Assembly (NCBI GenBank): GCA_965178125.1
Contig: OZ237770.1
Location: 496,001 to 560,000, forward strand
Length of the DNA: 64,000 nt
Direction of reading: 5' to 3'
From: Bilabrum cf. latius
Taxonomy: Eukaryota
Shown here: positions 3,371 to 33,860 of the stretch, piece after piece
Position numbering within the stretch: position 1 is the first letter of the stretch
Layout of the letters: each line of letters begins with the position of its first letter
Program-made: the position numbers and the translations under genes
The notes under the pieces: model-generated
Database searches by the model: none
What the model was told of the DNA's origin: nothing
Seen by the model: the letters and a program-made list of their open reading frames with translations, nothing else

Positions 3371-3797
3371 CTCTCACGCCCCTCCGAAGTCCGGACCCTC
3401 CACAGCCATCCCAGCTCACCGGCAACCAACAGCCCCACTGAGCCCCCACTGCCTCTCACGCCCCTCCCAAGGCCCTCCGGACCCTCCACAGCCACAACAG
3501 CATGCCGGCAACCAACAGCCCCACTGAGCCCCCACTGCCTCTCACGCCCCTCCCAAGGCCCTCCGGACCCTACACAGCCACACCAGCTCGCCGGCAACCA
3601 ACAGCCCCACTGAGCCCCCACTGCCTCTCACGCCCCTCCCAAGGCCCTCCAGACCCTCCACAGCCACACCAGCTCGCCGGCAACCAACAGCCCCACTGAG
3701 CCCCCACTGCCTCTCACGCTCCTTCCAAGGTCCTCCGGACCCTCCACAGCCATCCCAGCTCACGGGTAAGCAACAGCCCCACTGAGCCCCCACTGCA
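3371..3797 (-). repeat. Inverted array of the same 86-bp repeat, ~5 copies
   Basis: Reverse complement of the 905-2980 unit (ctctcacgcccctcccaaggccctcc...cagccccactgagcccccactgc). Confidence 0.95.
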
Positions 3798-5100
3798 TCC
3801 CAGGCCCCTCGCAAAGCCCCGTGCAACCATTGCACTTGATCATAGGTTTGCCCCTGGTCCCGCGGACCCACTGTGGCCGTGCAGCCCGCTGCCACCTGAG
3901 TCTCCCTCGTGCCTTGCACCTGGAGCCCCCATTCCTCCCGTTGTGCTCTCCCTGTTGACACCGCACTATCGTCGCCTGTGCCGGTGTCCCCCTCTTCGTC
4001 TCCACATCCTGTCCTCCTGCGCCCACCTCGTGTTCCGGCTCACCTGCTCCCCGTCGTTTCAATCCTGATGGCCAAGTACGTACACCAGTAGCCAAGCGAG
4101 TGCACTTGGCGCCGGTGCCCCCACGCAGACGATATTTCAACACCCTGGCCTGTATGCGCCTGTGATTTGAGCGGGGACTAGGGGTGCCAGTCGAGTAGTT
4201 TTCATCTGTGCTTTCCCTTGCTGTGCCTTAGCTAGCCTTGAGGAGCGCGTGCCTCTCTGCCCATGTGCCTCTCCGATAGATACTAGCCCGTTTACAGCCC
4301 TTGCTTCACAAAAGCAGCTAGTTTACGCATATGTGGACCTGAATCATGCTCTCGATAAACTGAAAACACTGTCTAGCAAGTACAAGTGTTGCATGCTTGC
4401 AACAGTAGTGTGAATGCTGGGATCCCAATACCCGACCTTCTGGGTTAAACCAAAGCAGTTAGGTGCATAAAGTTAGTACTGAGGGCACTAAGAATGCTTC
4501 AGGGTCAGTCCATCGTCTAAAATGTTACCAGGTGAGCCCTAACACCAGAGCTATCCAGAAGACCTAGCCTGCGGGATAGACAATGATCTGCGGATACTCA
4601 TGTTGGTACGTGCGGGTTCATCCCCAGAAAAGCAATAACTGACCTTAAAATATCTTATCACCTCATTGAAATTTTAAAAAAAAGACAGATTGACCAGAGA
4701 ACGCCCAGTTGCACTTGTGTCAACTATCAACGTGAGATAGCTTGGATGTTCGGCACAATACAGGCCAAACATACACACACCAAGCTTAAGTGGTGTACTG
4801 GGTTAATATAAACTCATTGACCCACGCAAATTTGCAATATACGGTATGATCAGGCAGAGAACGCTGATACGAGTCCTGTACAGAAAATGGGGGCGTGTCC
4901 CAGACATCGCGGTCTTACCCTCTCGCAATTGAGGTAAATTTTCACCAGATTTGCATATAAACTTGAAGAATACTCGCAAATCCGTCCGCGTACCGGGGTG
5001 TACCCGGAAAACTGGCTGCTGACCTGGGAGCAAGGTTTTTTGGGCGTAGTTCGGCTGCTGGCTAGTTTTTGAATAGTGTACTTTTAGTATATTTCCTCTA

Positions 5101-5225
5101 CTGCACTGGCACAGTCGTGCACTGCACCGTTGGACTCGGGGGCCATTGGCGAAGCCGAAACAGCGGCAGATGCAGAACTGCCCTCTCCCCCACCCACCTC
5201 CCGGCCCACCTCTCTCTGCTCCTGC
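5101..5225 (-). pseudogene. Fragment of the GNAT gene (right half of the split third copy)
   Basis: Matches ~8959-9083 and ~17696-17820 (ctgcactggcacagtcgtgcactgcac...cccacctctctctgctcctgc). Confidence 0.8.
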
Positions 5226-5908: not shown

Positions 5909-6274
5909 CGGCTGGTTGTCCTTGGGTGCTACTACGGCGTCCTAAGCGTAGCTAACCTGTTCGGTCCTGTAATGGTCACACACACTACAACCCAACCGAT
6001 TTGGCCCCCTTGGCCAGCCAAGTTAGCATAAGCCCCGACAAGAGCAGCGCCGGCACGACGCCGCGCCTAGCCTGGGCGGGCCAACCAGGGGGCCAACTCA
6101 ACACAACTCATGGGGTGATGAGTGGAGGTGGGAAACCACCACCGCTCTGTGTAGTAAACGTCAGACGACTAGAATGTTGCCGAGACGGATTTTCCGCAAG
6201 TAACGAGCACCCAGGCGCCGCCGGGCGCCGCCGCGGCCGATAAAACAGAATTTCACACGACCACAAAGGTTGAC

Positions 6275-8146
6275 ATGGGCGTCCGTGTTTCCATGGTAGC
6301 AGTGACTGCAACCTCGGGAATATATGATTTTGATTACACGAACTCCAATTCAGAAGGCCTTGTAGTGATTGGACGGCCACTCAACCCAGGCGTGCCTGGA
6401 ACCGACTACGATAATGGCTTCGCGTGCGACTTGGATGGTGGGGCCGCCTTCGACGAGAGGACGACTAAGGAGGCATGCATAGGAATGAACAAGAACGGGA
6501 GGGGAGCTTACACCCTTTCCGGCCAGAGCGTAAACGGTGGCTCCTTTTTAGTGCGAGACGTCGTATGCGCAGCGAACCAGGGCTTCAATCCAACGCAAGG
6601 TGATACGAGCCGGCACTGCCAGTTGAATTCGGACGTATCTTCATGCTCCAACACAAATGGCATTTTCATTTCGTGCCTCCCAAACTTTTTCGGGGCGGAG
6701 GCCGACTTCCTCCAGTTCAGGCTGGCAAACGCAGCGGGAGGCACCACTGACCAGACGAACACGACCGGGACGGGCGTGCTTCAGGTGAGCGCAGCAGGCA
6801 CCGACTACGCCCCCGTTTGCGATCAAGGCATCACACAAGCCACGGTGACGAAACTCTGCAGCTTCATGGGAGTCCCGGACACTGGCACCTTCAGCACTGG
6901 CGTGACGACGGGCGGGTCATCCTCCTACGCTCTCAAAGACCTGGACTGCAGCGCGGCGAACAACGGCGGGGAGTGCGACTTCGATCGGAGACCGGGATGC
7001 GGAGCAGATCAGGCTGTGACAATCACGTGCGCGCTGCCCAGTCCGAGTCCCAGCCCATCCGCGTCGGTGAGCGCCAGCCCATCCGCGTCAGTGAGCGCCA
7101 GCCCGTCCGCGTCAGTGAGCGCCAGCCCGTCCGCGTCAGTGAGCGCCAGCCCATCCACGTCAGTGAGTCCCAGCCCGTCCACATCGGTGAGCGCCAGCCC
7201 ATCCACCTCGGTGAGCGCCAGCCCATCCGCGTCGGTGAGCGCCAGCCCATCCACCTCGGTGAGCGCCAGCCCGTCCACGTCGGTGAGCGCCAGCCCGTCC
7301 ACGTCGGTGAGCGCCAGCCCATCCACGTCAGTGAGCCCCAGCCCGTCCACGTCGGTGAGCGCCAGCCCGTCCACGTCGGTGAGCGCCAGCCCATCTTCAT
7401 CCCCAGATGCAGCCGCGGCATCTCCCTCGCCCTCGGCTTCCAGCCTGCTCCTCCCCGCCCTCGCACGGCTGGAGGAGCTGCCGGTGGACAGCCCCGCTCG
7501 GGCGACCACCTCGGTGGATGAAGCCGACCCCGATACCACGGTCACCTGCAGCGCTGGCTCCGGGTCGGGCGCCCTGGCCTCGGCGGACCGCCTGCTACAG
7601 ACCGAGGTGCGTGTGGTGGGTCTTGCACCCGAGCAGATCAGCTGCATGGACGTGCAGCAGCTAGTGAACGAGCTGGCGCAGGCCGCCGGGGTGGACGCGG
7701 CTGACATCGTGCTGTGGCTGCAGGACCTGAGCGGGACCCAGAGCTCCACCGAGACGGCCGTGGTGATCCAGGTGCCTGCCGACTCCCACGAGGCGGCGCA
7801 GGTGGCGCTGGGCGCGATCACGGCCGTGCTGCAGAGCGAGCGTTTCCTGGCCCCGCTGCTGGCAGGAGCCCCTGTGGCCGGCGAGGAGGGCCCGGCGCTT
7901 GCGGTGTGGGTGGGTGCGAACGATCAGACGGCCACCTTCTCGGCGACCAACCCCTACTCCGAGGGCCGGACCACCCGCGGGGATGGTGACGACGAGGACG
8001 TGGCGCCTGCCGAAGTGGCCATGTTCGCGCTGGGGGGGCTGGCCATGGTGGCCGTAGCCGCCTTCGCATACTTCGCGTGCTACCGCGGAAGGACGGAAGC
8101 TCCGGCCAAGACTAGCAACAAGGAGGCCGTGGCTGAGGGAGTATGA
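6275..8146 (+). CDS. Cell-surface protein: two SRCR-like Cys domains, Ser/Pro/Thr mucin stalk (14 x 8 aa), C-terminal TM helix (copy 1)
   Basis: GVLQV...APVCDQG...KLCSFMG...LKDLDC...C...C...VTITC follows SRCR Cys spacing. [TA]SVS[AP]SPS repeats, hydrophobic [21 protein letters not shown], ends TGA. Confidence 0.8.
7040..7396 (+). repeat. 24-bp coding minisatellite, 14 units
   Basis: gcgtcggtgagcgccagcccatcc-type units encoding [AT]SVS[AP]SPS. Confidence 0.95.
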
Positions 8147-8629
8147 GTCCGGGCATCTTGGCGCACGATCGATCCCTATCAGGTGAAGAGCAATGGTCGG
8201 ATTTGGACCCACTTCCCTGCATCCGTAGGCCAGCGACTCGCTAGTTTAGATCCACTTGTGGGACACGGTAGGTTACGCAGTAGATCTACCTCGCGAGTGT
8301 CCTTGTGTGCAGTGGAGCACCCCTTGCGTTTTGGTCATCACATGGCTGTTGCTGGTTTCCACGTCTCGAACTGCCTCAATGTCAATCGCAAGCATTCATT
8401 TCAGCCACGGCACACCCAGGATCCAGGATAGCAGTCATGCCACCTCATGCTTGCCCCGGCACGCCACCGCCCACCCGTCTAGAGTCCGGTCAAGATCTAC
8501 CCCAACGCAGGGCCCATCCAGTAGATGTTCCCTCTGTCCCGATCTGTGATGCGCACTCGGCCCATAGCGAGGAAGGCAGCCTCCGCCGCTACCAACCACT
8601 GCCGCTGCCCCCATCCCGCCACGTCGATG

Positions 8630-10093
8630 TTATTCCACGGGAAATGGGCTGCACAGCCGTTTCCTCATCCTAAGCGCAGACCTGGCCGCCCCTCCGATCC
8701 TGTAGTACCCCTGCACCTCCTCCAGCACTCCGTACCCTTCCTAGTCATACAGCCGCACGGCCGGGGTGTTGTCCGGCAGGCAGTGCAGTTCAATCCATTG
8801 ACATTGCACCCCGCTTGTCCCCAGGTCTCCCACTTCGATGATCGCAGGAGACGCACTGCCCCCACACTCCCTGCTACCCCCCCCTGCCCCTTCCCCCGGT
8901 CCTGCTTGCCCATCCCCTGCTGGCACACCTGCACCATCCCCTGGATGCTTGGCAGGTACTGCACCGGCACAGTCGTGCACTGCACTATTAGATTCGGGGG
9001 CCCGTGGTGAAGCCGAAACAGCGGCAGACGCAGAACTGCCCTCTCCCCCACCCACCTCCCTGCCCACCTCTCTCTGCTCCTGCTCGCCCGCAGCACCCCG
9101 CCGCCCCGCCGCCCACCTCTCCCCTGCCCTCATGAGTGCCCTGGCCAGCCCCAGCCGACGGGCAGCAGGCAGCACGCACAGCGTGGTCACCACTGCCCAC
9201 GGTCCCTTGGGGCGCCTGGGTGCGGGGCCCAGGCCCAGGCCAAGGGTTGATGGAAGGCCCCCGCCGTGCAATGCACCTGGACCGTGTCTCATGGTCTCTC
9301 TGTGTTCCTTCATGGCCACTCCGCTGGCCCTGGTACCTTTCTCCTCCGCATCTACATCGGTGTTGGTAATGGATGCACCCCCGCTGCCAACACCAGCACT
9401 TGCACCAGCACTTGCGCTTGCTCCCGAATTGCCGTCTTCCGATATGCGCTTGCTGCTCGGCCTGGCCCGCAGCACAGAGCCTTGGCTTGACTCTGACCCT
9501 GCCGTAGGGGCGTTGGCCCCGGCTTCCCTGTCCCCATTGTGGGGGGTGGGGCCAGTCCGGGGTGCCCTCTCGTCGTGGGGAGGGGTCCACGAGGGGTCCA
9601 GCTGCTGTGCAATCCATGGGGCACACGCGCCGATCGCATCGGTCACTGCCTCGCAGCACGCATCCAACGGGCCCAGTGGGGCGGGCTGGTGGCAGCGTAG
9701 CGTTACGCAGCCCACAACGACGAATGGCGGCCAGAATGCGAACCATGACGAGTGTTCCCATATGTTGATTCTTCTGTTGAATGTTGCATATCCGGATGCC
9801 GGATCATATCGTCTTGTGATCTCGGTAGATTGCTTCGTGCTAGCGCCAGCGCCTCCAGTCTTGCCCGCTGTCGCGGACGGTCGTGCTCAAAAGCCGTGCG
9901 CGCAGGCTCTATTCCAGACTAGACCCATGTTCCAATCCGGAAATGAATCGCATGCTACAATGCAACACACATCGTCTCTTCCAGCAGCGAGGCCTTCAAA
10001 GAATCCACTGCTGTACATGAGCGGCAACGTAGCATCAGTGACAAAGGCTACTTGCGCCATCTCCTCTGACCGCATACGTCTAATATCAATCAA
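8630..10093 (-). pseudogene. GNAT N-acetyltransferase, probably degenerate copy 1
   Basis: Paralog of 17367-18893. A 2-nt and a 1-nt deletion (~9897, ~9730) shift the frame locally and expose TGA at 9887. The equivalent start ATG is lost. An unrecognised intron could rescue it. Confidence 0.55.
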
Positions 10094-10176
10094 AATAATA
10101 ATACATGAGCACTACTGCCATAGCTCGAGGCCTTCTTGTCAGGGGGGGAAGTCTTGCCGAGACGGATTTTCCTCTA

Positions 10177-12681
10177 GAGCACCTGACGAATCTTCAGCAG
10201 CCCCTATGCACCATCTTCATGAAGCATCTATGACCCCTGGAATCCCTCAGCGAACTTCTGAGCTATCTCAAGCAATTCTTCATTGAATTCTGTAGCTTTT
10301 TCTGCGTCTTGCTTCGCAACATCTTACCTATGAGCTGAGATATCAAGTGGTGAAATTGGCCCGATTTCGCGCAAAATTCTGGCCTGTGGATCGTTCAGAA
10401 ACTTTAGCACTGCGATTTTCTAGTGCAACTAGCGCCCTCCAGGTCCACTAACGAGAGATATAATGTAAAACACCATCCAGAATCAATTTTGTCGGTGTAA
10501 ATTAACTGATATGCCCTCTTTTGTCTGATAATGCGACATATTTCGTATTCCCCCAAGATCTCGTCGAATTATTAGCAATGCAATTTTGTGGCGTTTCTGA
10601 ATACATTTGCACTAGCAAATAGACACATCCTAAATAAACACTATAGATTCATACAATGTCTGGATATGAGTGCTTCATACTGGCATTGAGCCTCAGGAGG
10701 AGTCCAGACATGTCACTAGCCTTCGCCCGAAGCAGCTGCGACGGCAGCCTATGACAACCCCATTTTCTCTGTCGTTTTGGCGTTTGCTGCCTGCATGCTC
10801 GCCATGTTTGTTTCAAATCAAGCCTTGTTTGAAGTATTACCCGGGGATTCCTCCAGCTGTGTTTTGGCTTTGCTCAACTCGCTCAGGCTCGCGGTGTAGT
10901 GCTGCCACGCATCGCTGACCTCCCTTTCGCGCTTCGGCCCGTCAAGTAGGGCTGTGGTTGTCGCTTAAACCTGCTGTTGTTGCGCCTTCTTCGCAGATAA
11001 AAATATGATGCGATCTCTCTGGTGGTATTCCAAAGATAGCGCTCCGTACCGTGCCTGGGCGAGCCTGCCGTTCTGAGGTGCAGTGTCCGGTGCGGTCAGT
11101 TGCGCGGCGGCAGGTGCCTCACCTGCTTCGCCGGATGCGGACGCCTGCTATGACTGAGCTAGTGCAAGCTTCGCAGCTTTCGCGCGGGAGCACTCCTACG
11201 TCCTTCTGGCGATGTCGCGCACTGCCTCGGTTTCCTCGGCTAAGAACTCCTCCCCGATCGCTAACTCACTAGGCAGCGTTCCCGATTTGACCATGGCATC
11301 GTACTGCTGCTACACGGTCACCGGTCTTTGACCATCTACCGCATCCGCAGCGGTCCCCTTTGGTGCACCAGCACCGGAGGCTGCCCCTGCGCGTGCTCCG
11401 TCCCCCTCCTCCTCCCCCTCCCCCGCCCCGGCCTCTGCTCCCGCCCCGGCCTCCGTTGCATCCATTTTCGCATAAAATGCGTGGATTGTAGCAATTTCAT
11501 CAGTATCCTCGCTTCGAACTGGAATCTTCTTGGCCTTGCAAAGGGTCAACATGGCTTCATCAGTCGCCCCCGGCACCCCGCCTGCCTGCCCGGCGCCGGG
11601 GGTCCACCAGCTTGAGCACGTCTCCCTCGCCGTTGATCCACATGACACCAGTAGTTGTATGTGTACAGCCCCCCGCTTCAACATTGAAAGCTTGGCGTTC
11701 CTTTCCAGATGACTAGCTCCCTGTCCGCGGATCCGTCCTCCCTTTGTTGTTCCAGGACTTGATGGTGCTCTTGCTCTCCAGGATGACGCCTGACTCGTCG
11801 ACGTTGTGCTACCAACGTGGAGTAATTCCGAATTCCTTGCACATACGCTTGAACCAAATTATCCATCCAACTATTTGAGCGCAGGACAGGCCCGCATGTC
11901 CTTTGTCCAGGGTACCAGGTAGCTGCAAGGACAAGCCATTCCGAGCGCTCCTGAGGTGGCGGCGGACCCACGCATCTCTTACCAGGTTACAATCAGATGT
12001 CGATCTTCCTGCCGCTTTAAATGCCCCTTCAGTGCGTAGTTGAAAGTATCGTGCCATTTATGTGACCTGTTTTACCGTGTAAAATACCCCGCAACGGATC
12101 ATTCTACGAGCTGCAACACAAGCTCCTTCTCCGCGAATGTAGATACCAGTGGCTTCCGTCCTGGAGGTGGAGGTGGGTACTGCAGCTACATATACTTGTT
12201 GACTGTCATCCTGGAGGCCGGTACCCTCATCTTATTAACACTCGGTGGATGTCCGGGTGCGAAAAGTGCAGCTTATGTCTTGGCAGTCTGCAAAGGTACC
12301 ACTTGCACATTTTTCGAAGCCTTGCTGGTGTAGCGGCATCCGTCTACTAGATAACATCTATATTTCAAACATATGTACCCCTTAATGGTAGGTAAGCATC
12401 GATGAGAAGCCTGTGCAAACCGCACACAATTGCGTCGTCCACAATCCCGAGTACGATACACAGCAAATTACCCACCGCCGCAAATGCCTACAGCAACACA
12501 GGCGGGTTTAGACGCTAAACTAGATATATTTGCTTCAGCAAGGCAGTATCTGCGTCAGACAAGTCCTCCATTGGCCAGGAATTAGGTCTTGACAACTCGT
12601 TTCAGCTCCGAATCATGCATATTATACAGTGCAGTTATCAGGTGCTAAAGTTAATAAATGCTAAAGTTAAGTCAGGTGCTC
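10177..12681. mobile_element. 2.5-kb DNA transposon-like insertion with 11-bp TIRs and TA (or CTAG) TSD
   Basis: TA|GAGCACCTGAC (10177) ... GTCAGGTGCTC|TA (12681). Removing it restores ggattttcctctagtaacgagc, equal in length to the empty site ggattttccgcaagtaacgagc in copy 1 (~6187-6209). Confidence 0.85.
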
Positions 12682-12696
12682 TAGTAACGAGCACCT

Positions 12697-14741
12697 GGCG
12701 CCGCCGCCGCCGCCGGCCGCGGCCGCGGCGCGGCGCCGACCTCTCGCGAAAAGGGGGCACAGAGGGGGGCACAGAGGGGGCCCAGACCCCCCAGACCCTA
12801 CCCATCTGTGCCCCCCCCCTCTATCTCGGCCAATACTTGGAATTAAATCAAACTAAGGGCACCAATGGACTTGTCTCGACGAGTAGAGTCGTCTAGCATC
12901 GTCGGGGTGGGCAGCCCGGCGAATTCCGCGCACCTCTTAAAAACACACACTACCACGCCAATCTGATTAATGGTCCAAAACCAGCATTTTGATATCTACT
13001 ACAATGCCGAATGGGCCAAACCAACTCAGACTGAGCAAAATATGTAATGTATTTGTATTCTATTCGTCAAGGCTCACGCATTTTCTTAGATAGGTTGTAG
13101 TTTCTGAACCACAGCGTTTACATCGTGAACTTGCCTCGTTCATGCCCATCGACTAATCAGTCAAACCCGATTTCAATCCACTCCTAGCATGTTTAATCAT
13201 CAAATTCACTGTCTTTCCCATTCTGCTGGTCCAATATCGAGTCAAATAGAGCAGGATTCCACGCATCCATATCAGCACACTGCGCGATCTGCCAGCAAGC
13301 TTGCATCAACCTGCGGAATGTTGGCATCCTATATGAATTCCTTGAGCATCGTCTTGCTGACGTCGAGGTCCAGCCGCATACGAGCTTCCAGCAATCGGCC
13401 ACTGGTAAGGAGGCTACTCCTCCTAGGGTCCGCGCCTGCCTTACCGACTGAGAACTTGCGCTCAGCCTCTGCACTAGACACTGGTTAGAGTAACACGGTC
13501 TTGATTACCCGCACTACAGCTAGCATGCTCTTGCGTGATCGGGCCATCGCCAGGGTAGATTCACTCCGCCTGTGCATGGTCACAGCACGACCTGCAGCTG
13601 CCCTGGCCTGAGAAGAACTGGAGGAGGACGACGAGAAGACGAGCCTGGCTGAGCCAATGGAGCCATGCTGCCTGCCTCACCATCGTGCTCATCACTATGC
13701 TGTCGGGCTGCCTCGTCGTGCGCTTGTCTGCATTACGCCCCTGATGCCGCCGGCTGTGGCTCAGTCGCGGCCTTCGGTCTACCCCTCTTTTCCTCAATCC
13801 TTCCGTGGTTCTTCTTATCAACTGGTTAATAACAAGCTTACTTTTCGTGGTTTTTCTCGTAGAAGTTGCCGTGTAGTCGCCACACCTCGAAAATCGCTTG
13901 GTGACTTTGCCGTCGACCGCGCACATTCCGCAAATCGTGCTGCCGTCTGGAGAACGATGGAAGAAGCAGGACGAGCTTACGGGGCCTTGAGATCTGCCTT
14001 GATCACGCGGTCTTGAGCCTTCCGCAGCAATCGCTGCAGCCTGCAGGAGATGCTCGCCGGAATGCTCCAACCTTTGGCTTCCTGCGTTCGCCTGCTGCCA
14101 TATAGTCATAATGTGCCTATTATGAATAAGCTGATGGTACGCGTCGGCCGAAGTATCCACAGAGTCGCTACTGCTGCTGCTTGCAGCCATTGAAGCAGCG
14201 TAGGCCTCACCTGGCGGGAAGTAAACGCACTCAGCAGTGACGGCTCCTGTTATAAGAGGAGACAAAAAGCTTCATATGCTGACTACGCTACCTTTGAATT
14301 GCCCGCGGTGAAGAGCACCTTCTGCTTCACAAGCTCCCGGTCGTGCCCAGCTTTCTGCATTCTGTGGCACGTTATATAAAGCAATTACCATTTATCCATG
14401 GATCAGATTGCTACTATGGTACTAATGAACAACCATGACTCATACCACCGTGTGATATTGTCTGGTAGGTACTTGGCAGAACCCTTTGAGAAATCCTGGC
14501 CCTCGCCCTCTGGATCGGATCAGGGCATCGGAACCCCTGAGGGACGTTGGGGTCGACCAAACTTCTTCTTGCTGCCATTCTTGGCTCTATCTGCCATTTT
14601 TCAAACTTATTTGGTATCTTCGGGACAGCATCACATCATCATTGGCCAGTAATATGCATTTAAGGGGGGGGCACAGGATTTCGCCTCGAAAAGGTGGTAC
14701 CTCTGTGCCCCCCCCCCCTGAGGGGTCTGCCCGGCGGCGCC
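12697..14741 (-). mobile_element. ~2-kb degenerate hAT-like DNA transposon
   Basis: Absent from copy 1. Terminal inverted GGCGCCGCCG/CGGCGGCGCC and subterminal ggggggcacagagg/cctctgtgcccccc. The minus strand at ~13370-13490 encodes PVSSAEAERKFS...RRSSL...LEARMRL (hAT dimerisation-domain like). A possible BED-finger remnant (FF..ICGMC) lies near 13920. Confidence 0.65.
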
Positions 14742-14777
14742 GATAAAACACAATTCCACACGACCACAAAGGTTGAC

Positions 14778-16889
14778 ATGGGCGTCCGAATTTCCATGGT
14801 AGCAGTGACTGCAACCTCGGGAATACATGATTCAGCTTATACGAACTCCAACTTAGAAGGCCTTGTAGTGATTGGACGACCACAGAACCCAGGCCAGAGT
14901 GGAACCAACTACGATAATGGCTTTGCGTGCGACTTGGACGGTGGGGTCGCCTTCGACGAGAGAACGACTAAGCAGGCATGCATAGGAATGAGCAAGAATG
15001 GGAGGGGAGCTTACACCCTTTCCGGCCAGAGCGTAAACGGTGGCTCCTTTTTAGTGCGAGACGTCGTATGCGCAGCGAACCAGGGCTTCAATCCATCGCA
15101 AGGTGATACGAGCCGGCACTGCCAGTTGAATTCGGACGTATCTTCATGCTCCAACACAAATGGCATTTTCATTTCGTGCCTCCCAAACTTTTCCGGGGCA
15201 GCGGCCGACTTCCTCCAGTTCAGGCTGGCAAACGCAGCGGGAGGCACCACTGACCAGACGACCACGACCGGGACGGGCGTGCTTCAGGTGAGCGCAGCAG
15301 GCACGGACTACGCCCCCGTTTGCGATCAAGGCATCACACAAGCCACGGTGACGAAACTCTGCAGCTTCATGGGAGTCCCGGACACTGGCACCTTCAGCAC
15401 TGGCGTGACGACGGGCGGGTCATCCTCCTACGCTCTCAAAGACCTCGACTGCAGCGCGGCAAACAACGGCGGAGAGTGCGACTTCGATCGGAGGCCGGGG
15501 TGCGGAGCAGATCAGGCCGTGACAATCACGTGCGCGCTGCCCAGTCCGAGTCCCAGCCCGTCCACGTCGGCGAGCGCCAGCCCATCCACGTCGGTGAGCG
15601 CCAGCCCGTCCGCGTCGGTGAGCGCCAGCCCATCCACGTCAGTGAGCGCCAGCCCATCCACGTCGGTGAGCGCCAGCCCGTCCGCGTCGGTGAGCGCCAG
15701 CCCATCCGCGTCGGTGAGCGCCAGCCCGTCCACGTCGGTGAGCGCCAGCCCGTCCACGTCGGTGAGCCCCAGCCCGTCCACGTCGGTGAGCGCCAGCCCG
15801 TCTACGTCGGTGAGTCCCAGCCCGTCCACGTCGGTGAGCGCCAGCCCATCCACGTCGGTGAGTCCCAGCCCGTCTACGTCGGTGAGTCCCAGCCCGTCCA
15901 CGTCGGTGAGTCCCAGCCCGTCCACGTCGGTGAGCGCCAGCCCATCCACGTCGGTGAGCCCCAGCCCGTCCACATCGGTGAGCGCCAGCCCATCCACGTC
16001 GGTGAGCCCCAGCCCGTCCACATCGGTGAGCGCCAGCCCATCCACGTCGGTGAGCGCCAGCCCATCCACGTCGGTGAGCGCCAGCCCATCCACGTCGGTG
16101 AGCCCCAGCCCGTCCACGTCGGTGAGCGCCAGCCCATCATCATCCCCAGATGCAGCCGCGGCATCCCCCTCGCCCTCGGCTTCCAGCGTGCTCATCCCCG
16201 CCCTCGCACGGCTGGAGGAGCTGCCGGTGGATAGCCCCGCTCGGGCGACCACCTCGGTGGATGAAGCCGACCCCGATACCACGGTCACCTGCAGCGCTGG
16301 CTCCGGGTCGGGCGCCCTGGCCTCGGCGGACCGCCTGCTGCAGACCGAGGTGCGAGTGGTGGGTCTTGCACCCGAGCAGATCAGCTGCATGGACGTGCAG
16401 CAGCTAGTGGACGAGCTGGCGCAGGCCGCCGGTGTGGACGCGGCTGACATCGTGCTGTGGCTGCAGGACCTGAGCGGGACCCAGAGCTCCACCGAGACGG
16501 CCGTGGTGATCCAGGTGCCTGCCGACTCCCACGAGGCGGCTCAGGTGGCGCTGGGCGCGATCACGGCCGTGCTGCAGAACGAGCGTGCCCTGGCCCCGCT
16601 GCTGGCAGGTGCCCCTGTGGCCGGCGAGGAGGGCCCGGCGCTAGCGGTGTGGGCCGGTGCCAACGATCAGACGGCCACCTTCTCGGCGACCAACCCCTAC
16701 TCCGAGGGCCGGACCACCCGCGGGGATGGTGACGACGAGGACGTGGCGCCTGCCGGAGTGGCCATCTTTGCGCTGGGGGGGCTGGCCATGGTGGCCGTAG
16801 CCGCCTTCGCATACTTCGCGTGCTACAGTGGAAGGACGGCAGCTCCGGCAAAGACTAGCAACAAGGAGGCCGTGGCTGAGGGAGTATGA
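14778..16889 (+). CDS. SRCR-like/mucin-stalk/TM surface protein (copy 2, 24 stalk units)
   Basis: Paralog of 6275-8146. ATG at 14778 aligns with the copy 1 start. 80 aa longer through repeat expansion. Ends TGA. Confidence 0.8.
15543..16140 (+). repeat. 24-bp coding minisatellite, 24 units
   Basis: Same unit as 7040-7396. Confidence 0.95.
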
Positions 16890-17366
16890 GTCCGGGCATC
16901 TTGGCGCACGATTGATTCATATCGGGTGAAGAGCAATTGTCGGATTTGGACCCACCTCCCTGCATCCGTAGGCCAGCGACTCGCTAGTTTAGATCCACGT
17001 GTGGGACACGATAGGTTACGCAGTACCTCGCAAGTGTCCTTGTGTGCAGTGGAGCACCCCTTGCGTTTTGGTCATCACATGGCTGTTGCTGGTTTCCACG
17101 TCTCGAACTGCCTCAATTTCAATCGCAAGCATTCATTTCAGCCACGGCACACCCAGGATCCAGGATAGCAGTCATGCCACCTCATGCTTGCCCCGGCACG
17201 CCACCGCCCACCCGTCTAGAGTCCGGTCAAGATCTACCCCAACGCAGGGCCCATCCAGTAGATGTTCCCTCTGTCCCGATCTGTGATGCGCACTCGGCCC
17301 ATAGCGAGGAAGGCAGCCTCCGCCGCTACCAACCACTGCCGCTGCCCCCATCCCGCCACGTCGATG

Positions 17367-18893
17367 TTATTCCACGGGAAATGGGCTGCACAGCCGTTTC
17401 CTCATCCTAAGCGCAGACCTGGCCGCCCCTCCGATCCTGTAGTACCCCTGCACCTCCTCCAGCACTCTGTACCCTTCCGAGTCGTACAGCCGCACGGCCG
17501 GGGTGTTGTCCGGCAGGCAGTGCAGTTCAATCCATTGACATTGCACCCCGCTTGTCCCCAGGTCTCCCACTTCGATGATCGCAGGAGACGCACTGCCCCC
17601 ACACTCCCTGCTACCCCCCCCTGCCCCTTCCCCCGGTCCTGCTTGCCCATCCCCTGCTGGCACACCTGCACCATCCCCTGCTTGCTTGGCAGGTACTGCA
17701 CCGGCACAGTCGTGCACTGCACTATTAGATTCGGGGGCCCGTGGTGAAGCAGAAGCAGCGGCAGACGCAGAACTGCCCTCTCCCCCACCCACCTCCCTGC
17801 CCACCTCTCTCTGCTCCTGCTCGCCCGCAGCACCCCGCCGCCCCGCCGCCCACCTCTCCCCTGCCCTCATGAGTGCCCTGGCCAGCCCCAGCCGACGGGC
17901 AGCAGGCAGCACGCACAGCGTGGTCACCACTGCCCACGGCCCCTTGGGGCGCCTGGGTGCGGGGCCCACACCCAGGCCAATGGTGGATGGAAGGTCCCCG
18001 CCGTGCCATGCACCTGGGCCGTGTCTCATGGTCTCTCTGTGTTCCTTTCTGGCCGCTTCGCTGGCCCTGGTACCTTTCTCCTCCGCATCGACATCGGTGT
18101 TGGTAATGGATGCACCCCCGCTGCCAGCACCAGCACCAGCACCTGCTCTTGCGCTGGCTCCCGAATCGCCGTCTTCTGACATGCGCTTGCTGCTCGGCCT
18201 GGCCCGCAGCACAGAGCCTTGGCTTGACTCTGACTCTACCGTAGGGGCGTTGGCCCCGCCTCCCATGCGGAGGCATGGCCTCTGACCTTCTCGCATGCGC
18301 TGCTCCCTGGCAGCTTCCCTGTCCCCATCGTGGGGGGCGGGGCCAGTCCGGGGTGCCCTCTCGTCGTGGGGAGGGGTCCACGAGGGGTCCAGCTGCAGCG
18401 CGATCCATGGGGCACACGCGCCGATCGCATCGGTCACCGCCTCGCAGCACGCATCCAACGGGCCCAGTGGGGCGGGCTGGTGGCGGCGTAGCGTCACGCA
18501 GCCCACCACGACGAATGGCGGGCCAGACTGCGGACGACGACGCATATTTCCACATGTTGACTCTTCGGTAGAATATTGCATATCCGGATGCCGGATCATA
18601 TCCTCTTGTGATCTCGGTACATTGCTTCGTGCTAGTGCCAGCGCCTCCAGTCTTGCCCGCTGGCGCGGACGGTCGTGCTCAAAAGCAGGAGGCGCGCAGG
18701 CTCTATTCTAGACTAGACTCATGTTCCAATCCGGAAATGAAACGCATGCTACAATGCAACACACATCGTCTCTTCCAGTAGCGAGGCCTTCAAAGAATCC
18801 ACTGCTGTACATGAGCGGCAACGTAGCATCAGTGACAAAGGCTACTTGCGCCATCTCCTCTGACCGCATGCGTCTAATATAAATCTTAGCCAT
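17367..18893 (-). CDS. GNAT-family N-acetyltransferase (Naa50/Naa60/RimI-like) with long low-complexity insertions; one in-frame TAG
   Basis: TLPLMYSSGFF, VVGCV, VTTLCVLPAARRLGLARALM (acetyl-CoA motif A), IELHCLPDNTPAVRLY, GYY..SALRMRKRL. TAG at 18708 joins two ORFs in frame. Ends TAA at 17367. Confidence 0.75.
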
Positions 18894-19015
18894 CGTACAC
18901 GAGCACTACTACCATAGCTCGAGGCCTGACTGTTAGGGGGATGAAGGCCGTTTGCAGGTTGCAACCGCCGATTCGGTGGAAGAGAGCACGGCATGCAACT
19001 TCAGGCAAGGAATGA

Positions 19016-22000
19016 ATGTTGTCGGACGACGCAAGTGCCAAGAAGGCCAGAAAATAGTTGGAGCTTGCAGCTTCTAAGCTTTGGCTGCAGCATGCTGAAA
19101 TACTCGCGTAGATTGGAAGAGCACAAAACAGCATCCAACCGTTGGAGCCACTCAACGACAGTAACGACACGCAAATGCGCAAGTATCCGATGTCAGAGCA
19201 TTCACTCGGACTTGCAAGGAAAATATACGGTACGGCACAACATATTGGCCATGATCGCCGAGAGGGCCCTCGGGGCAATCGCCGAGTGTAGATCTAGCGC
19301 CCGTTTAGCGCCCACCCTCGTCGACCATCCAAAGCACGAAAGCGATCCATGGCGCAATATCCCGAATACACTGCGTCCCGGCTTATGGCTGGTGTTGGAT
19401 CGTTGCAGTCTTCGGTCGGCTTGCCCAGCCTGTCCGGCTCACTCGTCGACTCGGAGGAACCTCCGGCACCTGCAAGTAGCTCGCCGGCGGAGGAGGCATC
19501 GCGCGTGCGACTGCCGCAAACTGAGGGTGCCACGTGGCAAAACCGCGACCGCACCAGTGCATCACAGAATCCGGCTCAGTGGCCGCCAAGAATGAAGCGA
19601 AAGTTGCCATCGAAGCGCACCAGGCTCAGGCCTGGCACCAGTGCAAGTGCAAGTGCAAGTACCAGTGCTAGTGCAAGAGGGAGGAAGGGGAAGGGGCAGC
19701 CGAAGCAGCAGAAGAGGATGGAGAATGCTAAGGCGCCCCTTTCCAGCAGACGGCCTGCTGCTGCACCCGGGAAGGGAGCAGGCCAGTCGAAGACTCGCAG
19801 TAGACCGCGCTCTGCTGTGGCTAGTCGAGCCAGGAGCAGAGCCAGGAGCAGGAGCAGGCTGGTGAGGGTGAGAATGCCAGCAGCAACGAATCGCAAGGCT
19901 GACCACCCGACAAGCTTGCGGCAGCAGCAGCAGTAGTCCGATGTACTGATACGCAAGAACAAGACGGTCAAGAAGCCGACAAAGAAGAAGGAGAAGAAGA
20001 AGAAGAAGAATGATAGCTACTAGGAGAAGCAGACTGCAGCAACAAGTCACGATCGCGGTACGTCCAGCAAGGGGACAAACACGATCGCTCGAGAAGATGC
20101 ACGCGCTCAGGTTACCTCGGACCATGCAGCAGCGACGTCATGGACCAGAGCTATGGATTCGCTCCCCACGGAGCAGGAGCAGCTTGCGAGTGATGAGCCG
20201 GCGTCAGCAGCCGTGTAGCGCACACGCATAGCTCTAGACGAACGGGGGCAGAACCTGCTTCCCCTCCCGGCCGCAATTACGAGCAATCTTGCCGCCGAGC
20301 AAGGTCGGTCTAGCTTGGATGCAGCTGCTCTGGCAGCACTGCCACCATCCACTCCAAGACATGTGCCAGAGGGCCCATCGAATCGAGCCAACCGACAAGT
20401 GTATCCCGCCGATGGCCAAGCCAAGGCCCCCCAGGTGACACCAGATCGGGGCGTGCAGTCACTTTCAGTTGCTCCTGCACCTTCTCCTTCAAGGTCCTTG
20501 CAGAGGTCCAGGGCTGGCAGACTCCGAGTCATGCACGGGACCCTTCCATCCCTTCGTAGGAGCAGTACAAAGGCAAGTCTGCGGGCCTAGCTTGGCGGGA
20601 AAGTGCAATCCCCATCGGCCTCCCAGCTACCTACCTCCAGCAGCGCCAGCCAAGCCTTCCAGATGTCACTCGCTGCCTAGCGTGATGATCCACTGCACAC
20701 AGTAGTCTCACCTGCACCTGTTATAACCAGACAAGGTGCTCTATCAGGAGGGTCACTTGCACTTGTGAGTACAGGAGCCTCGAGTGGCCCGGTGATGCGG
20801 TTAAATGGTGGGCAGGGCGTCAAGGGCATCACAGACTTGCGTTCATTTGGAGGCACGGAGCGGGTGCTACTGCGGCACGATGCCTCTGCGGTCAAGGCCC
20901 GAGGGCTGGATGCGCTATGTGGCCGAGCACGCAGGCCTCAGCTGCCTTCGGTATCCTGTGTGGACGTAGAGGGCCCCACCTTAGCCAGCGGCGCTGTTCA
21001 AACCCAAGGACCCACGCTGTAGAGTTCCGGCCGGGTGGATCTCGGACCGCGTAGCTCAAGAGGCGTACTGGATAAGTTGCATGGACCGTCTGATCGAGCA
21101 CCTGTCTACTTGAGACATGTCTCGTCCCCAATACAATCAGATCCGGATGGGGACGCAGTGAAGTCATATAAGCAGCACAGGAGGACCCCGAATCTCCAGA
21201 TGTCCAGCGTTTACCACGTGGATCGTAGAGGCGCGAGAGAAGGTGAAGCCGAGCCATCGCCTAGTCCCCTGTATAGCCCTTCCAGTGCTACTGGTGGCCA
21301 CGTCAGGCGTGGTCTCCTAGTCCGTCAAGGCGCTGCCACCACAGGAATGATGCACTCTGACCACTGGCACAGCGTAGCAAGTACGAGCGGTGCAATGGGA
21401 CATAGCTAGCTTGCTTCTCTAGGCGGTAGAAGCGAGCATGTGTCTCCAGCTAGCAAAGCTTCGCGGTCAGACGTATCGTTGCATGCACCGGATACCGCCT
21501 CAGGTGGAGATGTGCATCAGTGCTCAGCATCACGAGGTCTTGTACCAAGCTGCGGCTCTGCAGAGCCTGCTGATCCGGGGGTCATCACTCGCAATGCGCT
21601 GGGGAACCAGGAGGCTAGCTAGGAGATCCCACCTGCAGTAGTCCTTGGAGAGCTGCGGTCAAATGCAACGGCCTAGTGGATCTATCATAGATCTCAGTTA
21701 AGGCCACAACAGACGGGAATAGAGGAAGGCGTCTCGGAGGTACTGCCTGACCTGATCGCTGCAGGACAGCCAGGCAACAGCCCATTGATGCAGGACGTCC
21801 CGCTGTATGGCGGCTATGTCAATCAAGAACCTAGATATGGGAATGGTGCTAGAGTCCGCAGTGACTTTGAACATCCCACCGAAGGACACAGCGAGGCTGT
21901 CGGGCACCCCACCGAAGGACACAGCGAGGCTGTCGGGCACCCCACCGAAGGACACAGCGAGGCTGTCGGGCACCCCACCGAGGGACACAGCGAGGCTGTC

Positions 22001-22207
22001 GGGCACCCCACCGAGGGACACAGCGAGGCTGTCGGGCACCCCACCGAAGGGCACAGCGAGGCTGACGGGCACCCCACCGAGGGACACGGCGAGGCTGTCG
22101 GGCACCCCACCGAAGGACACAGCGAGGCTGTCGGGCATCTCACGGAAGGGCACAACGAGAAGGCAACAGGATTGGCACTGAGCATCGCAGTAGACTCGCA
22201 CTGCTGA
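19016..22207 (+). CDS. Large disordered basic/Ser-rich hypothetical protein (~1060 aa), ~13 in-frame TAG
   Basis: ORFs 19349, 20315, 20765, 21035, 21440 and 21785 share one frame, separated only by TAG. ATG at 19016 follows a TGA. Ends TGA at 22205. Contains CAG-CAG-CAG-CAG-TAG. Confidence 0.65.
21871..22160 (+). repeat. 33-bp coding minisatellite, ~9 units (HPTEGHSEAVG)
   Basis: accgaaggacacagcgaggctgtcgggcacccc repeated. Confidence 0.95.
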
Positions 22208-22637
22208 TTGTGACCACGACGATGCTTGTTTGCGTACCGAACTACTTCGTAAGGAGCCAAGCAATTTGCAAAGCAGGTTGGCGGCCATGTTAATTGCACG
22301 GATCCGATGTGGACAAACCAACGCACAGTAGGGCTAACTAGATCCATCTAGTCGTCATCCAACTGAGATTTTAGTTTTCTGGATAATCTTACTGTCAACT
22401 ATCCCAAGAAGTCAGGGACGAAGCTGGCCGGGGCGAGAGTAGCCATCCAAAGGATGCGCACAACATCCAAGGAGCTGGCGCTTACGCAGACGGATTGTCG
22501 AACCTTGTGTCTAGCATGCTTGGGGTAGGGAGCAGGCATCGCACGTGGACGGCCACAGCTCGTGCGGGTAAACATCTCTCTCGCCGATAAATTCGAAGTC
22601 AGACGGGCAAGTATGGAACCGCATTGGCCAACTTGCA

Positions 22638-25600
22638 TCATCCATGGACGGCTCCAGGAGGGATTGCGTTGGCGCCTGGCTCATCGTCCGCCGTCGCCTG
22701 CGCCACCTCCACGCCCGACCCGTCCGCCACCCCCGCACCCAGCCCGCCTGCGGCTGCATCCGTGTTGCTTGGAGATCTCGCCTGCACCTTCACGTCGCTG
22801 GGCCGGCGACCTGCCCACGAGCCACCGTCCGCTGCAGTGCCCACGTGCGATGCCCCCGCCGCCCCCCTGGGCCCCTAGGAGGCCGCCCCACTGGCCCCCC
22901 CTTGCCCCCTGCTGGGGGCCAGGGTCTTGCCCACGGTGTGAAGGGCCTTGGCGTTCTGCCTCTTCATGAGGTAGCCCCCTCCCCCCCTCCTGCGCTGGGC
23001 CTCCAGCAGCTTGGTCCTCATGAGCTCCTTGGTGTACGGCTTGCCCAGCACCACGTCGAACCCAGCGCCGTAATACATGGCCTCGGCCTTGGCCCCCACA
23101 TCCACAGTGGCGGCGATGATGGGCATCCGCACGTTGCGCTTCTCCCGCAGCAGCTGACAGGCTTCAATCCCGCCCATGCGCTGCATCAGGATGTCCATCA
23201 CGATGCAGTCGAAGGGCCGGGCAGCCGCATCCAGCGCCTTCTCCACCTGATCCCCGTCGGTGCACGTGGCCACTGTGCACCCCAGCTTGACCAGCAGCCG
23301 CTGGGCGAAACGCAGGGCACTCCGCTCGTCATCCACAAGCAGCACGTGCATGCGGAGCAGACCGCCGTCTGCAGCGGCCTGTCTTGCCCGACGGGACTGC
23401 ACCGCCGCGGCCCCGCCCCCCGCGCCCCCCCCTGCCTGGCTCCCGAAATCACCATCCTCGTCATCTTCCTCATCGTCATCCCGCCCACCGCGTGCCTGCC
23501 GTTGCCCACCCGCAGCCCCGACCTCCCCCTACCCCAGGCGCACCACCGGCTCCGCAGTGCCCGCCCCCTGCCCCTCCAGGTCCAGCACCGCCCTCAGACC
23601 GGCGTCGTCCAGCTCCCCCGTCTGCCCGTCCATGGCCTCCTCCAGCTTCTCCAGAGAGGCCCGAGCAGCCGCCTGAGCCTGCTCTGCCACCTCGGTCAGA
23701 TCCACCGGGGCCGCGTCTGCCTTGCCACCCTTCCTGGCATCCTGCCCCGCGCCCATGCCGCCCAGCACGGCCGCCCGCAGGTCCAGGCGCTGTGCCTCGG
23801 CCGCCCGAGCCAGAGCCAGACTGCGCATGGGGCACTTGGCGTAGGTGGCCGCAGGGAACAGCGACAGCACGGTGTGGTCCTGTCGCGCCCGCGCATCGTC
23901 TCCCTGCAGCTGCTGCAGGTCAAAGTCACCCGCCTCCTTGGATTCCTCGGGTGTCCCGAAGGGCACGGCGAACCACAGCCGCAGCATCCCACGTGACTCG
24001 GCCAGCCCCGCCGCCCCCCTCGCCACTCGCTCGCACAGCGCCCTCACCAGGGGCGCGAACAGACGGACCCGCGTGTCCCGCATGCCTGCAGACGCCCCCA
24101 TGAGCACGGCCCGCCCCCGGCCCCCCTCCTGGCCCCCCTCCCCCTCCTTGCCCTCTTCGGCCAGGTGGGCCATCAGCTCGTCCAGGGAGGGACCCCCCAG
24201 CTCGGGCCCGCGTGCCACCACCTCCACGATCACTCTCCGCCTGGAAGTGGTCACGGCCACGAGCACGGCGGGAGGACCCGTGCCCCTGCCCCCCGCCGCC
24301 ACCTGCAGCGCGGGCATCACGTCCTCCTCCTCGTCCTCGTCGTACGTGTCCCCCATGGCCCCCTCCGCGTGCTTGGCTGCCAGAGCCAGAGCGCCCACGA
24401 ACATGCGGCGGAAGGTCTCGTGGTCCGCCACCACCACAGGGGGCACATCGTCGTCGATCCACAGGCCCACGCCGCCCTGCCCGCACATGGCCCGCACCTG
24501 CCTGCACCACGCCACAGCCTTGGCCCGCACCGACAGCTCGATGGGATCGCTGGAGAGGCTGTCCTCGGCCCCCTCGTCGCCCGCCTCTAGCCCCCCCTTC
24601 TGGAGGCCCAGCAGCGAGTCCAGGTCCTAAGAGGTGGCGTGGCGGATGTCGTTGGAGGACAGCGAGGAGGCCTTGCTCTTGTCGCTCTTGTCGCTCTTGT
24701 CCGCCTTGCGCACGGCCCCTTCGCCCCTCCGCTGGGCCGCCCGAGCCGCCGCCAGCTCTGTCTGCGTGACGGCCACCAGCGCCTCGGTGATGACCCCCAC
24801 GTACTGCCCCGCGGAGAGCAGGTCCAGTAGTGCCTATTGTGCGGCAGGACTCGCGTCCTCTGCCTCTGCCAGGGGCAGCACGTCCTCGGCCGAGTTCCTC
24901 AGCACCTGTATGCTCGAGTTCAGCTCGTGGGAGGCAGCCCCCACCACCCCCTTTGCCACGGCCAGGTCCAGGAGACCCCTCCTGGCCAGCAGACGGGCCA
25001 CATGCCTCGCCGCCAGACGGGCCCCCTCCTGCTTGGCGAGGCTCAGCTGCTCGCTGGCTGGACCCCCATCTGTGGCACCGTTCTAGCCCTACCCCTAGCC
25101 CTGCCCAGATCCAGATGCAGCCCCCCCCCTGCGAGCATGCCCCCCGCGTGCCTCGACACCGCCCCCCCCGCCCGCCGGCCTCTCCACGAGGATGAGCTGC
25201 ACGTCGGCGTGGTCTGCAGGGTTGCCCGGCATGGTCCTCTTCAGGGAGGCCTGTCTGGCCTTGGGCTTGGGGCGGGCCCCGTGCGCGTGCTTGGTGGCCA
25301 CCACCAGGATGGAGAAGTCTGCGGGAGAGAGAGGCAGGCAGGGGAGGAGGAGGAGGAGAAATAGGGCGGAGGAGGATGGAGAAAGAGGGCACGGGGCGGG
25401 AAATTGGGGGAGGGGTGGAGGAGGCAAGAAGAGACAGGGGGAAAAGCAAAAGGAGAGAGAGAAACTAAAGCGCGCAAGGACAGAAGAACGGGGAGAGGCG
25501 CGATGTGATGAGTGCAAGGGTGCATGGCCAGGTCAATTCTGGCCCTCGTGCTGCGCTCACTCCTGGGCCCGACTCGCTGCCTGTCCCACTGGCCCCGCAG

Positions 25601-25933
25601 CACCACGCTCCCGCTGCCACCACTCGCGGGCGCCTTGCTCGTGGCCTGCTGAGCGGCGTCCTCGATGCGGGCCGCCCACCGATCCACACTCTCCGGCGTG
25701 AGCCCAGAGAGGAGGTCTGCCTGGCTGCCCAGCGCATCAAGCCGCCGGCTACTGCCCCCGTGAGCATTGGGCTGGCCGTGCTTGGAGCCACCCAGCTCCG
25801 AGGAGGAGGCCGTCAGCACGCTGTACGCCCCTGGAGAGGCGTAACTGAGGCGGAGCTGCGTAAATTGGGATGTGATGTTTTGCTGGAAGTAAGCTCTTGC
25901 TGCAAGACGGAGCGCTTCCAATGGGTGCAGCAT
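22638..25933 (-). CDS. Hybrid histidine kinase-like/response regulator protein; 7 in-frame TAG; intron 25319-25560; 5' end uncertain
   Basis: Receiver domain VLLVDDE...FDCIVMDILM...GGIEA...PIIAAT...GFDVVLGKP. H-box-like SHEL (His at 24927-24929). Degenerate HATPase. Frame-preserving GTGAGC...polypyrimidine-CCGCAG intron. Ends TGA at 22638. Confidence 0.75.
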
Positions 25934-26468
25934 ACGCGAAACCGATCCAACGACACTGATCCGAGACGCGTGAATCGTCGTGGCAGAATCCGAGCAGACA
26001 CGTCGCCGGTACCAGTCGCATCAAAACTTAGCTTCACTCACATCGATTCCGGCCCTCATCACTGCGATGTCCGGGTCTTGCTCAAGTAGAGCTAGGGAGG
26101 CCCAGCCATGCGACGCCGCCTCTCGTGAGACCTGGAGGCCATCCGGAGGTCCCTGCCCGCTCACTGCGCCTGCGAACAACCAAATGGTACAGTGATAATC
26201 ATTGGTAGGGTTGTGCGCGGATACATCGAGCCAACTATTGGAGAGGTGACATTCCGCTTCCAAAAGGCCTCGTAGTCACGACACCCTGATGTTCCACTTC
26301 AATGCAGCCAAAACACTGGTCAGTGTGATAACAAATCCCCTTCTTGTTCTTACCTGATGCCGTAGACTGTCCACAGCCCATTCGAATAGGAAGGGGATTG
26401 GTACAATATCAGTTCAACGATCGAAGTTGCACGCGCCAGGGCGTGTAAGTAAATAGTGCGACCCGATT

Positions 26469-33860
<7,392 letters not shown>

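Follow-up and report, generated by a model that had tools for sequence, protein, structure and literature searches.

The window, i.e. the whole stretch of 64,000 nucleotides that was analysed, has a GC content of 55-67% and a eukaryotic gene content, consisting mostly of uninterrupted ORFs with large low-complexity inserts, with GT-AG introns also present. Its features are the following, with the basis of each assignment in brackets where there is one:

6275-8146, plus strand: SRCR-like gene, copy 1, with a Ser/Pro repeat, no TAG or TAA, ending in TGA (SRCR match below the cut-off)
8630-9886, minus strand: GNAT gene, copy 1, composed of the ORF 8633-9886 and a TAA at 8630-8632
10965-11858, minus strand: orphan ORF ending in TAA (coding signal limited to 11041-11640)
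14778-16889: SRCR-like gene, copy 2 (SRCR match below the cut-off)
17175-17366, minus strand: 64 codons that would be gained by read-through of the GNAT TAA to the next TGA, with a non-coding look (GC3, coding score)
17367-17369, minus strand: TAA ending the GNAT gene, copy 2 (sequence; alignment with PDB 6tgx)
17370-18893, minus strand: GNAT acetyltransferase ORF, copy 2, 508 codons with large low-complexity inserts; model uncertain between about 18520 and 18745 (Pfam Acetyltransf_1, 6tgx)
19016-22207, plus strand: ORF of 1,063 codons with no family assigned, 13 TAG, 19 CAA, no TAA, ending in TGA
22638-25232, minus strand: gene with a response-regulator domain, 7 TAG, no TAA, ending in TGA (Pfam, spliced contigs)
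26469-33860, plus strand: ORF of 2,463 codons with no family assigned, 17 TAG, 27 CAA, no TAA, ending in TGA
33995-35962, minus strand: ORF of 655 codons with no family assigned, 3 TAG, no TAA, ending in TGA
37805-39286, plus strand: ORF of 493 codons with no family assigned, 5 TAG, no TAA, ending in TGA
39443-43459, minus strand: eIF2D-like gene, 4 TAG, no TAA, ending in TGA (WH_eIF2D and SUI1, both slightly below the cut-offs)
43700-47521, minus strand: oxidosqualene cyclase (OSC) gene with exon 1 at 46766-47521, an intron at 46589-46765 and exon 2 at 43703-46588, 4 TAG, no TAA, TGA at 43700-43702 (Pfam matches with E 1e-46 and 2e-45; match to 1w6k with E 4e-172)
47660-51697, minus strand: Rrp6-like 3'-5' exonuclease with HRDC domain, 8 TAG, no TAA, ending in TGA (Pfam, L001)
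53746-55935, plus strand: DEAD-box helicase, 1 TAG, no TAA, ending in TGA (Pfam)
57919-59526, plus strand: SASA-family esterase, 4 TAG, no TAA, ending in TGA at the C-terminus of its homologues (Pfam, homologues)

Gene models were obtained from ORFs delimited by TGA only and starting at the first ATG, to which two genes from a codon-usage scan were added, with the spliced OSC merged into one model. The resulting 14 models comprise 12,820 codons with 66 TAG, 404 CAG and 94 CAA and neither TAA nor TGA in frame, which bears out the original prediction that in-frame TAA is absent despite more than 60 TAG. All 14 models cross every one of their TAG codons on the way to a terminal TGA. In the SASA esterase this TGA lies at the C-terminus of the homologues and in the Rrp6-like exonuclease at the end conserved in the related contig L001 (see below), while the remaining gene ends are without homologues for comparison. 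Fifteen TGA-ending genes had been predicted; the TGA ends stand, but the count is 14, because two of the ORFs form one spliced gene. Eleven long ORFs of the window are open only when TAG is read through. Read-through gives ORFs of up to about 2,500 codons, whereas TAG as a stop breaks the long ORFs, and the standard code fragments 10 of the 14 genes. TAG also occurs within conserved domains of OSC, Rrp6 and the SASA esterase, including conserved catalytic domains. UAG is a sense codon in the genes of the window, where it stands in frame throughout genes that are conserved and transcribed.

Contigs from sequencing runs were compared with positions 16200-29200 of the window; the runs X5, X6 and X8 are, as a guess, presumed to be RNA runs. 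In contigs of these three runs the introns 25856-26041 and 26170-26353, both on the minus strand and with GTRAG...CGCAG ends, are spliced out, which connects upstream exons to the response-regulator gene. The OSC intron has a length of 177 nt with the ends GTGAGC...CGCAG and is conserved in L001, and comparison with this relative identified the ORF 46766-47521 and the OSC ORF as a single gene. A repeat was also seen at 29242-29370.

The relative L001 was found by scanning metagenome contigs with the OSC of the window, which yielded 43 loci. None of the other 42 has an in-frame TAG opposite query residues, and L001 is the only locus sharing the code. It is a metagenomic contig of 5,945 nt with 57% GC, on which the end of Rrp6, a two-exon OSC and the start of the eIF2D-like gene follow each other in synteny with the window, and its OSC is 72% identical to that of the window. 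This OSC contains 14 in-frame TAG. Four of them occupy columns in which Q is invariant among 116 homologues, and a fifth a column in which 85 of the 116 carry Q; when aligned with the OSC of the window, 11 of the 14 are opposite Q, one is opposite H and two lie in gaps. The eIF2D-like orthologues of the window and L001 show a reciprocal TAG/CAG exchange, and TAG of the window is also embedded in runs of CAG and in (GGN-CAG)n repeats. Judged by these alignments, the assignment of UAG to glutamine is firm. TAG accounts for 12% of the glutamine codons in the window (66/564) versus 33% in L001 (20/61).

Taken without L001, the window's own data are a weak indication of what TAG means. One TAG of its OSC (45221-45223) aligns with a Q of both human lanosterol synthase 1w6k and L001, and lies in a column with K 45, Q 40, R 17 and S 1 among 116 homologues. 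In human EXOSC10, N and K stand at the places of two TAG of Rrp6, the relative P0121 (92-95% identical) has E at one TAG of the SASA esterase, and a TAG of GNAT copy 1 is replaced by TCG in copy 2.

That the in-frame TAG codons are untranslated, belonging to introns, pseudogenes or assembly or strain artefacts, is refuted for practical purposes by the Q columns of L001. Introns do occur here, and some long inserts of conserved enzymes could in principle be introns, but ORFs reaching a length of 2,463 codons lack TGA and TAA and yet hold up to 17 TAG, some inside conserved catalytic domains, the same pattern recurs in the independent contig L001, and contigs of run X3 match the TAG-bearing genes without differences. 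It is also highly improbable that UAG specifies an amino acid other than glutamine, such as Ser as in Scotinosphaera, Leu as in the rhizarian exLh, or Glu or Lys. The TCG (Ser) in GNAT copy 2, the E of P0121 and the K, Q and R counts at the single TAG column of the window's OSC would fit such a meaning, but they stand against the invariant Q columns under four TAG of L001, the 85 of 116 under a fifth, and the 11 of 14 TAG opposite Q in the window; at the window's own TAG column Ser occurs in one of 116 sequences. Serine was considered because of the Scotinosphaera precedent and the TAG/TCG difference between the GNAT paralogues, and was rejected: no TAG column of OSC is dominated by Ser, and the paralogue difference is the sole link to this amino acid.

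TAA behaves differently from TAG. In 13 CDS the two wrong frames contain 20 and 39 TAA and the correct frame none, and non-coding DNA contains 17 TAA, 23 TAG and 30 TGA per kb, TAA thus reaching 57% of the TGA frequency. Because it is frequent both out of frame and in non-coding DNA, TAA is not scarce in the genome as such. A-ending codons still make up 18-20% of two-fold pairs (CAA 94:404, 19%; AAA 63:305, 18%; GAA 143:571, 20%). On the assumption that TAA is interchangeable with TAG and that the third positions of TAR and CAR are under similar pressures, 14-16 TAA would be expected at the overall two-fold A:G preference and 21.9 by each gene's own CAA:CAG ratio, the latter value being higher because TAG concentrates in the genes richest in CAA; the number seen is 0 (P(0)=1.4e-8 for 21.9 expected). 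L001, with 1,663 codons, 20 TAG, 12 CAA and 29 CAG, likewise has 0 TAA and 0 TGA, compared with 8.3 TAA expected (P=1e-3). Four TGA-bounded ORFs contain one in-frame TAA each, at codons 8-41 and upstream of the first usable ATG; these were counted as 5' leader, with the start confirmed by the N-termini of homologues for the SASA esterase only. TAA does not serve as an ordinary codon for glutamine, and its absence is significant in both the window and L001. The predicted decoupling of UAG as a sense codon from UAA is therefore upheld, with the Q columns of L001 giving UAG its meaning and the zero counts withholding that meaning from UAA.

These counts also bear on the possibility that both UAA and UAG encode glutamine, as in NCBI table 6, and that UAA is merely rare as a result of GC-rich codon usage. 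In its favour, no stop-codon reassignment is commoner than UAR=Gln, the genes of the window end almost exclusively in TGA like those of table-6 organisms, and the window is indeed GC-rich. The two-fold pairs nevertheless retain their A-ending codons, TAG is concentrated where CAA is most frequent, and TAA is missing from the lower-GC L001 as it is from the window. Under table 6 the GNAT ORF would moreover acquire 64 residues of non-coding character, and this reading is considered improbable.

The end of the GNAT gene is the place at which a TAA appears as a terminator. At 17410 to 17367, the minus strand has the codons ...TCT GCG CTT AGG ATG AGG AAA CGG CTG TGC AGC CCA TTT CCC GTG GAA TAA, which translate into SALRMRKRLCSPFPVE followed by the stop at 17369-17367, exactly as had been predicted. 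The GNAT ORF matches Pfam Acetyltransf_1 with 35.6 bits at a cut-off of 20.7, and its residues 438-490 align with residues 115-167 of the 181 residues of PDB 6tgx, which is of the NAA50 type (E 1e-4). After the aligned block, 18 residues follow up to the TAA compared with 14 in 6tgx, so that the end of the ORF coincides with that of the fold, in line with the predicted position of the TAA. The 64 codons before the TAA have a GC3 of 0.77 and a coding score of 15.0, the 64 codons after it a GC3 of 0.58 and a coding score of 1.5, the last value being equally low in 11% of true coding windows. The GTGGAA at the TAA is unlike the GTRAG donors of the three introns and is not a plausible splice donor.

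A contig of X5 is unspliced across 17229-17599. It represents a variant copy with 14 differing letters over this interval, 10 of them unplaced, and may differ at the TAA itself. In the variant copy present in X3 and X5, 95 letters replace 7 at 17221-17229, which breaks the frame within the would-be extension. When the C-terminal part of GNAT together with the extension was used as query, no match at E<=0.001 was obtained among proteins of 169-541 residues.

The GNAT gene lies within a duplicated segment of 4 kb (6236-10146 and 14739-18940; 92-96% identical), and the TAA is present in both copies, at 8630-8632 and 17367-17369. Its retention in both duplicates had been put forward in support of a stop function. 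The copies are, however, identical from 17468 to 17118 (350 nt), including about 250 nt downstream of the TAA, and because of this identity around and beyond the codon the second copy is not independent evidence and adds no weight. In its 5' half, copy 1 lacks 2 bp at one place and 1 bp at another that are present in copy 2; the presumed-RNA contigs match copy 1. Over the last 296 codons the copies show a pN/pS of 0.61, which corresponds to weak constraint.

TAA thus ends one of 15 distinct gene ends in the window and neither of the two in L001, which are both TGA. If TAA in fact ended 10-20% of the genes, one in 15 would be unremarkable (P 0.55-0.17); it does not fit the 36% share of TAA among non-coding TAA plus TGA, for which the probability of at most one in 15 is 0.012. 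The orphan TAA-ending ORF at 10965-11858 is possibly a second TAA-terminated gene. Taken as 10968-11555, it has no Pfam family and 0 homologues among 1.84 billion representatives, and for this reason it cannot serve as a second example. As the original prediction had already stated, the case for TAA as a stop consists of one gene, here the GNAT family, plus the absence of TAA elsewhere. On the evidence of this family, UAA is probably a working terminator.

Regarding the origin of the window, a search with its OSC in a prokaryote genome collection returned bacterial cyclases only, at 25-42% identity. An OSC FastTree of 118 sequences and 709 columns unites the window with L001 at a support of 1.0, and the two adjoin a clade containing a Cafeteria roenbergensis sequence with an SH-like support of 0.995, a placement that comes from a single gene and few named sequences. 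The best single-gene hint is thus a relative of bicosoecid stramenopiles. An aphelid origin, suggested by Amoeboaphelidium with UAR=Gln, was considered; this single-gene tree places the window beside Cafeteria instead. The closest named homologues of the SASA esterase are from choanoflagellates, at about 45% identity. A literature search found no nuclear code change in bicosoecid stramenopiles.

A code with UAG=Gln and both UAA and UGA as stops was formerly listed as NCBI table 15. It was first shown for Iotanema spirale, with 204 in-frame UAG distributed over 126 genes, and of the gene ends 104 are UAA and 15 UGA (Panek et al. 2017, PMC5304391). The window and L001 resemble Iotanema in having UAG on conserved Gln positions and no in-frame UAA or UGA. 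Iotanema is, however, an AT-biased anaerobic fornicate with UAA as main terminator, whereas the organism studied here is GC-rich, encodes a sterol cyclase and uses UGA at 14 of 15 distinct ends, and UAA ends of coding sequence are suggested here by one gene family. In the ciliates Protocruzia tuzeti, Hartmannula sinica and Trochilia petrani, UAG=Gln is likewise combined with UAA, in these cases as the preferred stop (McGowan et al. 2024, PMC11687900). They share with the window the assignment of UAG alone to glutamine and the decoupling of UAA and UAG, while the window is not ciliate-like, being part of a large multi-gene, GC-rich contig that has GT-AG introns 150-190 nt long and whose OSC is placed beside Cafeteria. 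Other UAG-only cases are Scotinosphaera with UAG=Ser (PMC8271138) and the rhizarian exLh with UAG=Leu (PMC5304391); UAG is likewise a sense codon there and UAA and UGA are stops, but the invariant columns occupied by UAG in L001 are those of Gln and not of Ser or Leu. In the UAG-only reassignments that these three sources describe, UAA remains a working stop in every one (PMC5304391, PMC11687900, PMC8271138).

The table 6 codes of many ciliates, Dasycladales/Cladophorales/Trentepohliales, hexamitids and Amoeboaphelidium share with the window the meaning UAG=Gln and a predominance of UGA among the terminators. There UAA is also Gln, in contrast to the 0 in-frame UAA found here against expectations of about 22 (window) and about 8 (L001). 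The split code, proposed as much rarer, is real, but it is not new, having been described for Iotanema, Protocruzia, Hartmannula and Trochilia. A search of the literature found no description of an organism outside the ciliates that is GC-rich and combines UAG=Gln with a UAA stop. What the window holds appears to be a known code in a new lineage, which is GC-rich, apparently outside ciliates and metamonads, and has UGA as its main terminator.

A good probability is given to the explanation that the window belongs to a GC-rich, intron-poor eukaryote whose cytoplasmic ribosomes read UAG as glutamine and do not read UAA and UGA as amino acids. The mechanism put forward for Iotanema combines a tRNA-Gln(CUA) with an eRF1 that no longer binds UAG (PMC5304391). 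By analogy, a tRNA-Gln with the anticodon CUA would pair with UAG and not with UAA, and would probably have arisen from a copy of tRNA-Gln(CUG) by one anticodon change, while a tRNA with the anticodon UUA would be lacking, as in the described cases. On the same model, eRF1 would have lost the recognition of UAG, presumably through the contact to the G at the third position, and would have kept UAA and UGA. With UAA and UGA retained by eRF1 and no UUA tRNA, UAA would most likely still be a terminator, rarely used as such because the composition favours UGA, and a NAA50-like acetyltransferase would genuinely end at the TAA of 17367-17369. Neither the 64-kb window nor L001 contains tRNA genes, and eRF1 is not among the genes of the window.

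An alternative that is unlikely, yet not negligible, holds that UAA is effectively unassigned or disappearing, being neither a sense codon nor a regular stop, with UGA as the only working stop. The GNAT TAA would then close a duplicate gene that is decaying or poorly terminated, and the organism would be an intermediate between the standard code and UAR=Gln, to which the same low probability applies. TGA ends all 14 well-supported genes of the window and both gene ends of L001, and the single TAA among 15 ends is low for a codon reaching 57% of the TGA frequency in non-coding DNA. The frame-breaking differences in the 5' halves of the GNAT copies and their weak constraint are also in line with a decaying duplicate. 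GC-rich genomes, however, commonly prefer TGA, and at a TAA share of 10-20% the count is unremarkable. The GNAT fold stops at the TAA, the coding signal falls at the same point, and the UAG-only cases described in the sources cited above all keep UAA as a working stop. UAG as glutamine with UAA retained as a rarely used terminator is the preferred reading.

For annotation this means that the standard code or table 6 would be wrong for this genome and its relatives, and that table 6 would overrun TAA ends that are probably genuine. With each independent split between UAG and UAA, a coupling of both codons through wobble pairing and recognition by eRF1 becomes less convincing. The present case stands apart from the described ones in being GC-rich, in having UGA and not UAA as main terminator, and in lying apparently outside ciliates and metamonads. 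With a relative of the same code available in a public metagenome, the TAG shares of the two allow the spread of a captured codon through the proteome to be tracked. There is a small chance that the lineage, possibly a bicosoecid relative, is part-way from the standard code to UAR=Gln, with UAG captured and UAA nearly unused; if so, the commonest stop-codon reassignment of eukaryotes would proceed in the order UAG first, with UAA emptied before its capture.

The oxidosqualene cyclase (OSC) gene of the window carries an additional N-terminal exon, which is shared with L001, a syntenic metagenome contig of a relative that also has in-frame TAG read as glutamine:

Window 43700-47521, minus strand, and L001 857-4506: OSC gene with additional N-terminal exon
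Window 45100-45160, minus strand: OSC motif LKMQGYNGSQLWDT

The additional exon comprises about 250 codons with a signal-peptide-like start, and no Pfam family was found for it. It is separated from the cyclase part by an intron of 177 nt in the window and 152 nt in L001, and the exon junction DNP/HAADKL is common to both genes. Exon and cyclase had appeared to be two genes because the intron contains a TGA. In the MQGYNGSQ motif, Y represents the cycloartenol-synthase state, and T is found in the lanosterol synthases of animals and fungi. The OSC of the window has Y at this position, at which human lanosterol synthase (1w6k) has T, and it is thus presumably in the cycloartenol-synthase state. 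This would argue against an opisthokont origin, such as from an aphelid.

Two further introns are absent from spliced contigs of X5, X6, and X8, sequencing runs guessed to be RNA:

25856-26041, minus strand: intron, 186 nt
26170-26353, minus strand: intron, 184 nt

These introns, with the ends GTGAGT/GTAAGA...CGCAG, are located upstream of the response-regulator ORF, the upstream exons of which extend to the divergent 2,463-codon gene at its 5' end.

Duplicated and repetitive sequences comprise the following:

6236-10146 and 14739-18940: segmental duplication, 92-96% identity
919-2980: 24 tandem copies of an 86-bp unit, 94% matches
3371-3819: five inverted copies of the same 86-bp unit
60192-64000: G/T-rich 173-bp satellite, 22 copies, 98% matches
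29242-29370, plus strand: perfect hexamer microsatellite (GGTACA/GT-rich)

The segmental duplication contains an SRCR-like gene and a NAA50-like acetyltransferase (GNAT) gene in convergent orientation. Its copies are without differences over about 350 nt (17118-17468), as after gene conversion. Another fragment of the GNAT insert is found at 5099-5225. The satellite, with a GC skew of +0.51, reaches the window end, and the microsatellite encodes a (Gly-Thr)n run within the 2,463-codon ORF. In-frame low-complexity inserts of 40-125 residues are also present in the conserved enzymes OSC and Rrp6.

The share of TAG among glutamine codons is 33% (20 of 61) in L001 (5,945 nt), compared to 12% (66 of 564) in the window, and the GC content of L001 (57%) is lower than that of the window. 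The captured codon TAG seems to spread with falling GC.
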